Origin: Candidatus Borrarchaeum weybense
Lineage (GTDB): Archaea; Asgardarchaeota; Sifarchaeia; Borrarchaeales; Borrarchaeaceae
NCBI GenBank assembly: GCA_019057385.1
Contig: JAHQJS010000006.1
Span: forward strand, 677,038 to 741,037
DNA: 64,000 bases
Reading direction: 5' to 3'
The position numbers were made by a program, and so were the translations under genes. Below, piece after piece: positions 404 to 10,037 of the stretch (its first letter is position 1; each line of letters opens with the position of its first letter). The notes beneath the pieces were generated by a model. The model did no database searches, was not told the origin of the DNA, and saw only the letters and a program-made list of their open reading frames with translations.

Positions 404-637
404 TCTTGTCCCTCAATCATATCAATTTGACCCTTAAGTTTAATTAGTAACTGTTTAGGTAATGAAACCTTTTTGTTAAGCGTTTAATTGAAGTACTTTG
501 TGCTGTTTGTTATTGTAAATGCCCAAAAATCGGAAAGAATATGCCGATGGAGAAAGTTTTAACAGTAACAATTTAAGTATTAGATCTTTATATGAGGCTG
601 ATGATGTAGTGCAAGAACATTGAGGAGGTGGGCGCTA

Positions 638-1453
638 ATTTCCACTGTCGAAAGAATGATAGTAGAGTCACGAATGCTTTGCTCTAAATGAATCACGGAA
701 GCGGATCTGATGGGGCTTGACATCGCAAGAATCACATATGTTGATGACACTGGTGAACACAGATTATTGGATAACCCGCTAAAAAGAGTAAATGGTCTCT
801 GGATAAAATGCAATATGAATAATTCTCAGAAGATCATAAAAAGTTGCGATTATTGGGAGATCGTTGACACGACTGCTTCATTTGCAGAAATTAGTGGTCA
901 CAGAATTCGATACAGAGAAACTCATCTGCAATACGATCCCTTGAGGAATATATCCTTATCTCTTAACATCTGTGTGTATTTTCCAAAGCAACCGTTCTTT
1001 GTGCTTGATTACATGATAAAAAATACTTCGAAAAACTCATCACTTACTGATGTTTCTCTTTATTGGCTCATAGACCTTGATATCGAGGGTAAGGAGAGTT
1101 ACAAAGATAATTTTGCACGGTACGATGATGACATAATTTACCAATACCATTCGCGATCTAATGTTCATGCGGGCTTCTGTAGTACAATTAAATCATCCCG
1201 GTATGAATGTAACAGTCCTTATGGACTCAGAATCAAATCACATCACCTTAACTTAGGAAACATCAACTTTCGAGGTCCTGATGACTGTTCAATTGGCTTA
1301 CAATGGGATTTTGGACAGCTATCGCCTCAAAAAACGATCAACTTACCAGTGGTTTTTGCAGCAGGTATGGATAAAACACATTTCCACTCGAACATGGAGC
1401 AAGGTATTGCGCTATTAAATAAAATAAAAAATACAAATGATTCCACCTCTTAA
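638..1453 (+). CDS. Candidate selenoprotein of unknown family (C-S-K-U motif, in-frame TGA 689-691); ORF track shows only 710..1453
   Basis: GGAGGTG at 624-630 followed by in-frame ATT 638, ATG 656, ATG 674; frame reads STVERMIVESRMLCSK(TGA)ITEADLMGLDIAR; SECIS-like hairpin at 1437-1472. Confidence 0.7.
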
Positions 1454-1472
1454 AGCCTCTTGAGGTGGGAGA
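1437..1472 (+). promoter_or_regulatory. Eukaryote-type SECIS element overlapping the stop codon of the candidate selenoprotein
   Basis: ATGA-TTCCACCTC-TT-AAA-GCCTCTT-GAGGTGGGA-GA: 9-bp stem (1441-1449/1462-1470), AUGA/GA core, AAA 11 nt after AUGA. Confidence 0.75.
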
Positions 1473-2002: not shown

Positions 2003-3337
2003 TTATGAGAGAGGATGTTTACTGAGAAGTTCATCTAATCGTTTTACAGTTGTGTTAATATCTGTTTTCTCTACTCCAATAGCAGCATTAATTGTAAGAT
2101 ATTGGGTTGGATATGTGTCATGGCATGTTCCAAAAGTAGAGTCTGCCTTAGGTAACCCGCGCGGTCCTGTTACTCGTAAAGTGTATAATTGCGCACCTAA
2201 TTTATGCGCGATTCTTGGTTCTGTAATTGTCATTGCTACAGCGATAGTACTATCTACTTCAAGTAAACGCTCTCCATGTTTTTCTGCCGTCTCTTCAAGT
2301 CTTGTTTTCAATAAATTATAGCATTCATTTTGTTGCTGTATTAATTCTCTATATCCATTCTCTCCTAATGATAGAATCGCGGCCAGAAATTGTACAACTG
2401 GTGCAGCAGTTGCACGTCCCGCGTATGAATGCGCTACTCTTTTAAGAAATTCTTCATCAGGTCCAGCTATAATAGATCCGCCAACAGGGCACAGAAAATT
2501 CTTGTCAGTAGATTGGATTATTGCATCTACACGTCCTTTAAAAATCGCGCTTCTTATCATCTTCATTATCACAGGTGATTGCACGCCATAAGCATTATTT
2601 ATTACATGTGGGATCCTCTTTTCTTTTGCTATTTTTGCTATTGAAATTACATCATCAGGCTGTCGTGGTGGGAAAAAGGTAGTTGTTGTCAAAATCGCAG
2701 AGGTGTGTTCATCTATTGCTGCTTCAACATCATTTGGATCAGAAATAACAGCATCACCGTCTAATTTACATTGTATAATTTTCGGTTGCAAATCAACAAG
2801 TGAAATACCGTTTAACGGTGATTCATGATCTATTCGAGGATAAACGACCTCTTGTCCTCCTGTAAGATCCCGTGCAACTTTTAATGCCAGACCAATGCTC
2901 ATACCAGTAGCTAGAGGGATGATGTATGCCCCTGAAATATTTTCAATTCCAAATTTTTTGAGTAAGTCTGTCGCAAGTCTGTTAGCGATCTGATACATTA
3001 AAGATCCGCCTGCTGCCTTTGGTTGAGGATCTATTAATACACCACTTCTTCCAACTCCATGATTAAATCCCGCAGCTAATTCTGAAACTAAAGGCGATGC
3101 AATTCTCGCTTCCCGTTCGCCGATTCGCGCCGCCTTAGGATCCTTATCTGTATCCATAGATGACAAAACCTTGAGCAATAATCTAATTGACTCATCAGAC
3201 CATCCCTCTTTTGGAAGTGTTCTTTGTTCAAAAAGCCTTTTTATAGGTTTTATTAGCGTTTCTTCCAAAACAATAAGACCACGATCCAGCATGTGAGGTG
3301 GTATTAATCCTAAAAGAAGTTCTTTTGGTAACTTCAT
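2003..3337 (-). CDS. spcS: O-phosphoseryl-tRNA(Sec) selenium transferase SepSecS
   Basis: IGEREAR, HGVGRSG..QPKAAGGS, NNAYG, QSTDKNF (PLP lysine), YAGRA motifs; 444 aa. Confidence 0.95.
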   Translation of the reverse strand: MKLPKELLLGLIPPHMLDRGLIVLEETLIKPIKRLFEQRTLPKEGWSDESIRLLLKVLSSMDTDKDPKAARIGEREARIASPLVSELAAGFNHGVGRSGVLIDPQPKAAGGSLMYQIANRLATDLLKKFGIENISGAYIIPLATGMSIGLALKVARDLTGGQEVVYPRIDHESPLNGISLVDLQPKIIQCKLDGDAVISDPNDVEAAIDEHTSAILTTTTFFPPRQPDDVISIAKIAKEKRIPHVINNAYGVQSPVIMKMIRSAIFKGRVDAIIQSTDKNFLCPVGGSIIAGPDEEFLKRVAHSYAGRATAAPVVQFLAAILSLGENGYRELIQQQNECYNLLKTRLEETAEKHGERLLEVDSTIAVAMTITEPRIAHKLGAQLYTLRVTGPRGLPKADSTFGTCHDTYPTQYLTINAAIGVEKTDINTTVKRLDELLSKHPLS

Positions 3338-7405: not shown

Positions 7406-8374
7406 ATGCCATTGAAAGTAGCTTTTTTGCAGCTTGCGAGCTGCTGGGGTTGTCATCAGAGTCTTGTGGACATGCATGAGAAACTCCTAGATGTAGTGCC
7501 CCACTTGGAAATTGTCCATTGGGCGGCTGTGGTCGACTACAAGTACAAAGACCTTGAAGCCCTTCCTGATGGAGAAATTGACATCGGTTTTGTCGAAGGC
7601 TGTAGCAGAACAGAAGAAGACGTGCATCATCTCAAAGTACTGCGGAAGAAATCAAAAGCGGTAATTGCATTCGGAACTTGCTCTTGTTTCGGTGGAGTTT
7701 ATGGCATGGCAAACTCATATTCAATTGAAGCTTGCAAAGAACGAAAATTCCTCACCGCAGATACAGTTGTTGAGGGAACAATCCCTACGCATGATGTACC
7801 TGATTTCGAACCATTCATCATTCCTAACGACGAGATAGTTCCAGTGGATCTTCATATCTGGGGATGTCCGCCCGAGACTGAAGTCATTCTCAAGGTCGTT
7901 GGTGGTGTTCTTGAACATGGACTCGGCACGGTTGTTAGCATCTTACAAGAGCACGGAGAAGAATACCTCTGGTCTGAGGTATTGGGGTTCCCGGTGAAAA
8001 CTCAATGTGATGAATGTGAGCGTACTCGTGAGGAGAAAAAACTTACAGTGATAAAACGAGATTTCGAAGGCATTCCTGACCCAGAAAAATGCCTTCTAGA
8101 ACAAGGTTACATTTGTATGGGTCCTGCCACTCGTGCGGGATGTGGTGTGAGATGTCCGAACGCTGGTGTACCTTGTACTGGATGCTGGGGTCCTGCGCCT
8201 AACGTCAGAGATCAAGGATCTAAGATGATGAGTGCATTAGCTAGTATTTGTAAAGATATTGACCCTGAAGATTTCCGGAAAATGGTGCCTGATACTGTAG
8301 GAACATTTTACAAGTTCTTTTTAGCTAAAGCACTCCTCCCACGTATGGTAAAAGAAAAGAGTATGGAGGTATAA
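7406..8374 (+). CDS. vhuG: F420-non-reducing [NiFe(Se)] hydrogenase small subunit
   Basis: SCWGC, FGTCSCFGG, GCPP, CDEC, CLLEQGYICMGPATRAGC..CTGCWG. Confidence 0.92.
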   Translation: MPLKVAFLQLASCWGCHQSLVDMHEKLLDVVPHLEIVHWAAVVDYKYKDLEALPDGEIDIGFVEGCSRTEEDVHHLKVLRKKSKAVIAFGTCSCFGGVYGMANSYSIEACKERKFLTADTVVEGTIPTHDVPDFEPFIIPNDEIVPVDLHIWGCPPETEVILKVVGGVLEHGLGTVVSILQEHGEEYLWSEVLGFPVKTQCDECERTREEKKLTVIKRDFEGIPDPEKCLLEQGYICMGPATRAGCGVRCPNAGVPCTGCWGPAPNVRDQGSKMMSALASICKDIDPEDFRKMVPDTVGTFYKFFLAKALLPRMVKEKSMEV

Positions 8375-9755: not shown

Positions 9756-9905
9756 ATGGTTGAAATTGATGAGAAACTTCTTAACCTGTTCGAAATGTTA
9801 ATACGCTGTTATGACTGTTGAATAGCTTGTAGTGCTCATCTCATTGTCAAAGATGAGAAGGGTAACGTACTTGCAAAGAAGGATATGGTCATTGCAACAG
9901 GATGA
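9756..9905 (+). CDS. vhuU: Selenocysteine-containing hydrogenase subunit U (49 aa, Sec at TGA 9819-9821)
   Basis: MVEIDEKLLNLFEMLIRCYDC(TGA)IACSAHLIVKDEKGNVLAKKDMVIATG; matches the RxYDxUxxCxxH motif missing from VhuA; GAGG upstream; SepSecS nearby. Confidence 0.92.
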
Positions 9906-9938
9906 TCTGATCGACAAAAAAGTATGAAGTCGACAGGA
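9902..9938 (+). promoter_or_regulatory. Candidate SECIS element of vhuU (core AUGA coincides with stop codon)
   Basis: ATGA-T-CTG(A)TCGAC-AAAAAAGTATGAA-GTCGA-CAG-GA; AAA 10 nt after AUGA; 8-bp stem with bulges. Confidence 0.55.
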
Positions 9939-10037
9939 ACTGGGCCCATATGCGGGGCTTACATATCCTTTCCTTCTAATTAATTTACACTTTAAGTTCA
10001 TTTATTCACATATTCAAACTACAGGAGGCTGTTCCCC

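Follow-up and report, generated by a model that had tools for sequence, protein, structure and literature searches.

A search of Lokiarchaeota for novel selenoprotein families reported five, together with the lokiSECIS, a selenocysteine (Sec) insertion sequence (SECIS) (Mariotti et al., 2016; PMC4989117). For Asgard archaea, three known selenoprotein families were given by Sun et al., 2021, and seven, found by homology, by Huang et al., 2024 (PMC11227280), with a type I model resembling the eukaryotic SECIS (eSECIS). The listed Asgard families are SelD, FrhA/VhuU, HdrA, FrhD/VhuD, Prx-like, AhpF-N-like and DsbA-like, and a review of May 2026 repeats this seven-family list. Here we analyse a gene in a 64,000-nt stretch of DNA from Candidatus Borrarchaeum weybense (contig JAHQJS010000006.1, positions 677,038 to 741,037 of the forward strand; hereafter the window), in which a UGA at 689–691 is very probably decoded as Sec with the help of a SECIS. 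We put the probability of this reading, judged from sequence comparison, at about 0.88. The family to which the gene belongs is described neither in the surveys of 2016, 2021 and 2024 nor in the 2026 review, and it would be the eighth selenoprotein family of Asgard archaea, the seven in the published surveys having been found by homology to known families. Huang et al., 2024 also point to an Asgard-only hypothetical protein, MBD3157761.1, near secS, efSec and pstk, which may be a member of this family; its accession does not occur among the cluster accessions.

With the known Asgard selenoprotein genes, the gene shares an in-frame UGA, Cys-containing homologues, an AUGA...GA core with an A-rich apical loop and the same Sec machinery. 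The SECIS abuts or overlaps the stop codon, and in one clade (Thor-type, see below) the AUGA supplies the UGA stop, as published for VhuU.1. Unlike the listed Asgard selenoprotein genes, Sec lies within the first ~12–25 residues, no lower SECIS helix is evident and an AUU or AUA start is possible; to the seven listed families there is no relation in sequence or fold. A first-pass annotation of the window, made from the sequence alone, had not recognised the protein as any of the described archaeal selenoproteins. This agrees both with its absence from the published Asgard lists and with Pfam and NCBIfam, which have no family for the protein or for its Cys-type relatives.

Gene model and conservation across the UGA

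Coordinates are positions within the window, and "this genus" is the genus of the window's genome. Gene callers and public annotation give only 710–1453 of the coding sequence. The frame of this ORF is open back to position 605, with TGA 689–691 as its sole interruption; sequence and translation agree on this, as the first-pass annotation had it. Upstream of the annotated ORF the frame reads ...STVERMIVESRML-C-S-K-U-ITEADL-M(710), and translation with TGA as U gives the residue context R-M-I-V-E-S-R-M-L-C-S-K-U-I-T-E-A-D-L-M. The features of the gene up to its stop codon are:

587–594, + strand: putative TATA-box-like promoter element TTTATATG, ~30 nt 5' of the Shine-Dalgarno sequence
624–630, + strand: Shine-Dalgarno sequence GGAGGTG; AGGAGGTGG is invariant in all same-genus loci
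638–640, + strand: ATT, a possible non-canonical start, 7 nt 3' of the Shine-Dalgarno sequence
656–1453, + strand: putative selenoprotein coding sequence, 265 aa plus TAA stop from ATG 656 (271 aa if the start is ATT 638)
680–691, + strand: C-S-K-U motif (TGC TCT AAA TGA), its Sec/Cys column invariant in alignment A1
689–691, + strand: in-frame UGA, probably read as Sec, residue 12 from ATG 656 (codon 18 from ATT 638)

The block from the TATA-like element to the Shine-Dalgarno sequence is conserved in the same-genus loci L001–L006 and L009. As first reported, the TGA is preceded by GGAGGTG 624–630 and by the in-frame ATT 638, ATG 656 and ATG 674. A sequencing error at the TGA finds no support in other assemblies: four further sequencing runs, spread over three studies and including two from ~3 %-divergent strains, gave contigs identical at 689–691.

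A word-indexed protein search returned nine relatives only, all of them annotated as hypothetical and every one called from a start 3' of the TGA. We fetched their contigs and read the frame upstream. The TGA is kept in all same-genus loci (7/7), with the 11 residues before it and the six after it identical. The string SRMIVESRMLCSK-U-ITEADL is exact in seven metagenome loci and four related genomes of this genus, with synonymous changes only, and throughout codons 656–688 the nucleotide differences among same-genus relatives are all synonymous. Six of the seven same-genus loci have Lys as codon 710, and their next possible starts, from which the gene callers had to begin, lie at least 35 codons further in or are absent. 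Since most close relatives have Lys at this position, the protein cannot start at Met710, and the homologues do not begin at or after it.

N-termini were then read in 30 fetched loci, in 20 larger regions and in five more. We label the clades of homologues Loki-type (f22), Thor-type (f31), a further Sec-type clade (f23) and a Cys-type clade (f21). An in-frame TGA stands at the same column in every read member of this genus and of the Loki-type, Thor-type and f23 clades, so the homology that had been expected on both sides of the TGA extends over ~40 distinct loci in four Asgard clades, well beyond what chance would give. The Sec contexts are LCSKU-ITEADL in this genus, xxTU-N/DxxGY in the Loki-type clade, ECxSU-GxGR in the Thor-type clade (with a variant, L052) and VCxxU-KK in f23. 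All five f21 loci have Cys at the Sec column (TICxxC-xxKGY). Among database proteins, P0010, P0013, P0015, P0021, P0026 and P0033 carry CxxC at the Sec column, and P0032, P0035 and P0041 carry CxxCxxC. The aligned residue is TGA or Cys and never another, again as anticipated, once the insertions in loci L040 and L042 (described below) are recognised.

In a 25-sequence alignment (A1) the Sec/Cys column is invariant, and the only other invariant positions are G20, G47, N123, D140, D142, G145 and L200. A maximum-likelihood tree has six well-supported clades, four Sec-type and two Cys-type; its deep order is unresolved and gives no direction for the Sec/Cys change. A second Sec at the C-terminus was not seen in the four Loki-type loci matched by the search pattern.

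The only Shine-Dalgarno sequence sits 7 nt before ATT 638 and 25 nt before ATG 656. ATT 638 is kept in all same-genus loci (five sequences), and in L007 the frame cannot begin earlier than the ATT, because a TAA stop lies two codons upstream. The residues between ATT 638 and ATG 656 are poorly conserved, so that either start, including a non-canonical AUU, is possible for the window's gene. In the Loki-type clade, ATA stands 9–10 nt after GGAGGT in six of nine loci (L018, L025, L027, L032, L035 and L036), and the other three have GTG, three nt further on than the ATA position. In L018 and L032 the reading frame from the upstream stop to the Sec codon is free of ATG, GTG and TTG codons. Given the ATA behind the Shine-Dalgarno sequence and the two loci lacking a standard start, non-canonical AUA/AUU initiation seems likely in this clade. 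The proposal of a new ~271-aa selenoprotein is supported, with a length of either 265 aa (ATG 656) or 271 aa (ATT 638).

These comparisons support the view that hypothetical gene 710–1453 is a cut-off annotation of what is probably a Sec-containing protein of a widespread Asgard family. Because public annotation truncates the family everywhere, the sizes of Asgard selenoproteomes are probably underestimated, and selenoprotein searches by homology only would miss lineage-specific families such as this one.

A SECIS-type element at the stop codon

The first-pass annotation had also pointed to an AUGA, a 9-bp stem and a GA at the end of the gene. This arrangement is present in the sequence:

1437–1472, + strand: eukaryote-like SECIS (lokiSECIS / Asgard type I), with AUGA, a 9-bp stem, the loop UUAAAGCCUCUU, the return stem and GA

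The element consists of ATGA (1437–1440), a 5' arm (1441–1449), a loop (1450–1461), a 3' arm (1462–1470) and GA (1471–1472). Its 12-nt loop contains the TAA stop (1451–1453) and AAA (1452–1454), and the element as a whole overlaps the last five codons and the stop. The minimum free energy structure from RNAfold is the same 9-bp hairpin. The element thus has the core of Asgard type I SECIS elements, with AUGA and GA flanking an upper helix of ~9–12 bp and adenines opening the apical loop.

We scanned the homologous loci with a descriptor requiring AUGA, a 7–12-bp stem in which one mismatch was allowed, a loop with AA in its first six bases, and GA. It matches at or just after the stop codon in 12 of 13 Loki-type loci, the 13th having AGGA for AUGA, and in 11 of 13 Thor-type loci, in which the AUGA core provides the UGA stop. 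Six of eight distinct same-genus loci match as well, the other two having two stem mismatches, and none of the five Cys-type loci does (0/5). The chance rate of the descriptor per 245-nt window is 0.013 in this genome and 0.023 in the fetched loci. In an alignment of the same-genus elements (A2), four pairs of the 9-bp helix have changed on both sides, and the helix covariation score of 0.278 exceeds those of all 500 shuffles and all slid controls. The apical loop begins UUAAAG, with A2 columns A27 and A28 invariant, and the same is seen in the Loki-type and Thor-type elements. The conservation that had been predicted for the 3' hairpin is therefore found in two forms, as compensatory changes in the helix within this genus and as the same layout accompanying Sec-type, but not Cys-type, loci.

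Sequence-based models of the element travelled less far. A covariance model of the same-genus SECIS (R1) recovered only itself in the genome (next match E 0.28) and nothing in other clades, being too sequence-specific. The SECIS elements of three clades were also aligned together with MAFFT (A3), but the 3' arms were misaligned and the alignment was discarded. A stricter descriptor (stem of at least 8 bp and AAA in the loop), scanned genome-wide, gave 34 matches in the genome versus 19 in the shuffled genome, so it is usable only with gene context. Among the matches of this stricter descriptor are the 3' ends of two Sec-containing genes of the genome, MvhD and HdrA-MvhD, and at the stops of SelD and VhuU there are AUGA / A-rich loop elements of similar layout. 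For comparison only, a VhuU-like small gene within the window (9756–9960) has a UGA stop that is part of an AUGA, followed by a hairpin with an A-rich loop.

Of the machinery for Sec incorporation the genome has SepSecS, a SelD gene containing one in-frame TGA, EFSec above the curated cut-off and an adjacent PSTK, tRNA-Sec being the one component not detected (see below). SepSecS lies 550 nt from the gene, the distance first given. TGA ends 494 of the 1701 open frames of at least 300 codons in the genome, so there is no genome-wide reassignment of this codon. Under the selenoprotein reading, 656 (or 638)–1453 would encode one protein of ~265–271 residues. Its UGA 689–691, the 12th or 18th codon, would be decoded as Sec by the genome's own SepSecS, PSTK, EFSec and SelD, as for known Asgard selenoproteins, and the eukaryote-like SECIS hairpin overlapping the stop, ~745 nt downstream, would direct this decoding.

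Fold, occurrence and possible function

The AF2 model of the protein (pLDDT 87.5, pTM 0.87) has ~17 strands and one long C-terminal helix, and it is uncertain only at residues 13–18, just after Sec, and in the last four residues. Residues 2–8 are modelled as the first strand, with Sec on a flexible stretch between strands 1 and 2. The predicted protein is a stand-alone galactose-mutarotase-like β-supersandwich of the GH15/GH94 N-terminal-domain type. VIA-align gave a Z score of 20.8 to glucodextranase 1ulv (219 residues, 3.3 Å) and of 18–20 to the N-terminal domains of GH15, GH94 and cyclic-glucan-synthase proteins; over all these matches (Z 18–21) the aligned residues number 215–236, at ~3 Å. 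The model also superposes on the N-terminal supersandwich of glucoamylase and of GH116, and more weakly on aldose epimerases (Z ~13); Foldseek agrees with the supersandwich match (E 3e-7).

The likeness to the N-terminal domains of GH15 (1ulv, 1lf6; glucodextranase/glucoamylase), GH94 (2cqs, 1v7v and 6ggy; cellobiose, chitobiose and laminaribiose phosphorylases) and cyclic β-1,2-glucan synthase (8rf9) runs over the whole length, including the following helix, with aldose 1-epimerases more distant. However, identity to the GH15/GH94 domains is only 8–14 %, the protein stands alone and it has an N-terminal CxxU/CxxC. Because the (α/α)6-barrel catalytic domain is absent, it shares the fold without being a member of the GH15/GH94 enzyme families, and the shared fold does not imply a shared function. 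GH15/GH94-type supersandwich domains are not known to carry such an N-terminal CxxU or CxxC. Nor was a thioredoxin (Trx) fold found, the model being all-β and Pfam and NCBIfam giving no Trx-family matches. Like the Trx-fold CxxU/CxxC selenoproteins (Prx-like, DsbA-like, AhpF-N-like and the eukaryotic SelW/T/H), the family has a CxxU with Cys homologues and likely a selenylsulfide couple; unlike them it is an all-β supersandwich, and its partner Cys is C-terminal rather than at −3 in most Loki-type members. The family has no known relatives among selenoproteins, and its fold lies outside the usual redox folds.

Searched with a profile, a set of 1.8 billion representative proteins yielded 246 matches, of which ~40 are core family members. 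The weaker matches cover only profile positions ~104–265 and lie in large multidomain proteins of unknown origin, some of which carry metallopeptidase-like or transglutaminase domains. An Atlas feature search returned unnamed Asgard clusters only. As found here, the family is confined to Asgard archaea, barring this weakly related domain in multidomain proteins.

A six-frame search of 400 genomes of the phylum had matches in 225. Homologues are present in 4/4 genomes of this genus, 124/135 of f22, 77/89 of three pooled families including f31, 3/4 of f23, 11/14 of f21 and 1/1 of f20, with isolated weak matches elsewhere. The values for f22, the pooled families and this genus are in the range reported for the commonest Asgard selenoproteins. 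Cys-type orthologues are present in two closed Loki-type genomes and would provide an experimental handle if these belong to cultured strains. The family is missing from lineages that have no SepSecS, except for f20 (one genome, 66 % complete) and isolated weak matches, and six SepSecS-positive families (f4 and f15–f19) are without a homologue, apart from one weak match.

The gene's neighbours in the window include an FrhB-like gene and the following:

2–403, − strand: NifB-like radical SAM gene, divergent from the selenoprotein gene; its 5' part lies in the window and a full-length orthologue in L002
1529–1957, + strand: GcvH-family (lipoyl-carrier-like) gene, 75 nt downstream, with its own GGAG; below the curated NCBIfam GcvH cut-offs
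2003–3337, − strand: SepSecS (O-phosphoseryl-tRNA(Sec) selenium transferase), convergent; Pfam PF05889, E 9e-123

All loci of this genus, and no others, have GcvH and SepSecS beside the gene. Co-transcription with gcvH, as first proposed, is a possibility in this genus. In the other clades SepSecS is on other contigs or hundreds of kb from the family gene. Loci L038–L046, from f22 and f21, have as same-strand upstream neighbour a ~325-aa fusion of Roadblock/LC7 and a Ras-family GTPase (9/9 loci), with gaps of 25–68 nt to the homologue in the Cys-type genomes; these Roadblock-GTPase orthologues are 42–48 % identical between f22 and f21. Thor-type loci have another conserved neighbourhood.

As to function, a tentative proposal, to which we give somewhat less than an even chance, is that Sec forms a selenylsulfide redox centre. 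The partner would be either the Cys at −3 (CxxU) or a Cys at the extreme C-terminus, and the supersandwich would bind a partner or substrate. A Cys at −3 is found in this genus, in f31 (except L052), in f23, in f21 and in part of f22; a Cys at the extreme C-terminus (-EC, -DCx or -WCK) is found in f22, f23 and f21. A selenylsulfide is suggested because Sec or Cys is paired with another Cys in every clade sampled, L052 excepted.

Several observations weigh against this picture. On the side of decoding, no tRNA-Sec was found above threshold in this assembly by Rfam RF01852 or ARAGORN, and no RNA runs containing the locus are listed. No lower helix is evident; RNAfold leaves the flanks of the hairpin unpaired with each other and folds the 3' flank into a small hairpin of its own. 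The f23 loci are Sec-type but have a different conserved 3' hairpin, with no descriptor match in three loci, and in the Thor-type locus L052 both the Cys at −3 and the descriptor match are lacking. The check by SECIS models that had been proposed at the outset was negative as far as Rfam goes, its covariance models giving no SECIS match for the hairpin even at E up to 10 on 131 nt; this silence carries no weight, because the SelD and VhuU genes of this genome are equally unmatched in their 3' regions. On the side of function, the supersandwich fold is typical of sugar-binding or structural domains rather than redox proteins, most f22 members have lost the first Cys of CxxU, and no gene neighbour is conserved across clades.

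Among the alternatives, the one that best survives keeps the same gene model and has Sec, the neighbouring Cys and the C-terminal Cys ligate a metal ion or Fe-S cluster, as in a metallochaperone or sensor. It would account for the CxxCxxC of one Cys-type group (P0032, P0035 and P0041), for the up to three chalcogen residues on flexible termini, and for the M-x-C-x-x-U of this genus, which resembles the heavy-metal-binding motif MxCxxC. However, the clades share no second or third ligand: in most f22 members only Sec and one C-terminal Cys remain, and in this genus and f31 only CxxU. A selenylsulfide fits better than a fixed metal site, because the N-terminal Sec is flexible and the resolving Cys interchangeable, and we regard metal binding as unlikely, at about half the weight of the redox centre.

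A more far-reaching reading takes the family to be an Asgard-specific, selenium-dependent switch or partner in a eukaryote-like small-GTPase network. The flexible Sec/Cys arm would couple redox to the GTPase, and one subclade would also need removal of a bulge-helix-bulge (BHB) intron abutting the UGA. The idea comes from the Roadblock/LC7-Ras GTPase fusion directly upstream in all nine Loki-type loci, Sec- and Cys-type alike, and we consider it doubtful.

Less probable still is that the protein is an accessory of the Sec pathway, acting in selenium delivery or as a SECIS- or EFSec-associated factor. The gene adjoins SepSecS in all genomes of this genus, in our sample the family occurs only in lineages with SepSecS, with the exceptions given above, and the hypothetical protein that Huang et al., 2024 place near Sec genes might be a member; yet outside this genus the two genes are far apart or on different contigs, the six SepSecS-positive families do without it, and the fold has no RNA-binding character.

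There is very little room for the UGA being read as another amino acid, by near-cognate Trp, Cys or Arg read-through or by local recoding. The undetected tRNA-Sec would fit such a reading, but the alternation of Sec and Cys at one column is the classical Sec signature, a SECIS-type element accompanies Sec-type loci and is absent from Cys-type ones, and the same genome has the Sec machinery together with UGA-containing SelD, MvhD and HdrA-MvhD genes. Weakest of all is a true stop at the TGA, with the gene starting at ATG 710 and 656–691 a short upstream ORF or conserved leader: gene callers and database entries do start after the TGA and this genome does have ATG 710, but codon 710 is Lys in the same-genus loci L002–L007 and L009 with the next possible starts far inside or absent, the segment from the TGA to the called starts shows strong conservation and forms strands in the model, the sole Shine-Dalgarno sequence is upstream of the TGA, and Cys-type relatives read straight through the column.

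The Loki-type insertion and minor features

Four loci of one Loki-type genus carry an insertion directly 3' of the Sec codon, of 29 nt in L040 (G188:C1, + strand, ~7680–7730 of the locus), 32 nt in L042 (G217:C43, − strand), 28 nt in L078 (G192:C29, − strand) and 31 nt in L079 (G226:C161, + strand). The lengths are not multiples of three, the insertions contain stops, and the main part of the gene is out of frame with the N-terminal part. When the insertion is removed precisely, the gene again reads T-U-N-x-x-G-Y, like the neighbours L080, L081 and L083, which lack the insertion. An apparent replacement of Sec by Arg in L040 and L042 was rejected, the Arg being an effect of the 29–32-nt insertion.

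The ends of the insertion are conserved as ...CUUG-AAU-CUUC... and ...GAAG-CAAG-AAA/AUA, and they pair as a central helix of 4 bp (CUUG/CAAG), flanked by two bulges of 3 nt each (AAU and AAA/AUA). The inner helix varies in sequence and is fully complementary in three of the four genomes (4, 8 and 10 bp), with one mismatch in L042; a distal exon-exon helix is predicted. By this geometry the insertion is a candidate BHB intron in an Asgard mRNA. Archaeal BHB introns do occur in protein-coding genes, as in cbf5 of Crenarchaeota. Like them, the insertion has a 4-bp central helix, two 3-nt bulges and a variable, complementary inner helix, and its excision restores the frame. Unlike the known ones, this putative intron, recognised here from sequence, sits in the mRNA of a selenoprotein and has the UGA as part of its central helix and bulge. 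Asgard archaea are reported to be rich in tRNA introns and mostly to have a two-subunit EndA (bioRxiv 10.64898/2026.10.13.758758). The part of the literature covered by our search describes no intron of this kind in an Asgard mRNA. The insertion is absent from the window's own gene. The possible AUU/AUA starts and the UGA-adjacent candidate intron bear on how Asgard translation and RNA processing relate to recoding.

In the f23 clade, loci L013, L014 and L019 share a conserved hairpin 3' of the stop codon, in which CCCAAG pairs with CUUGGG around a 5-nt loop and which is itself part of a larger helix. With three sequences only, this hairpin may be a different SECIS shape.

Directly 3' of the SECIS in the window there is one further structure:

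1475–1493, + strand: second small hairpin, with a GGCG/CGCC stem and an 11-nt loop, within the block GAUGGGCGRURAACGCGACCGCC

It is seen in same-genus loci only, where the surrounding block is almost invariant. Its GAA-containing loop faintly recalls the euryarchaeal GAA_A SECIS, for which it is too small.

Two more descriptor matches lie outside the window, at G000:C6:502364-502419 (− strand) and near G000:C4:583564 (− strand). The first is also the second-best match of model R1 (E 0.28). Both stand 3' of open frames with one internal TGA, of 119 and 212 codons, respectively, and these frames may be further selenoprotein genes.

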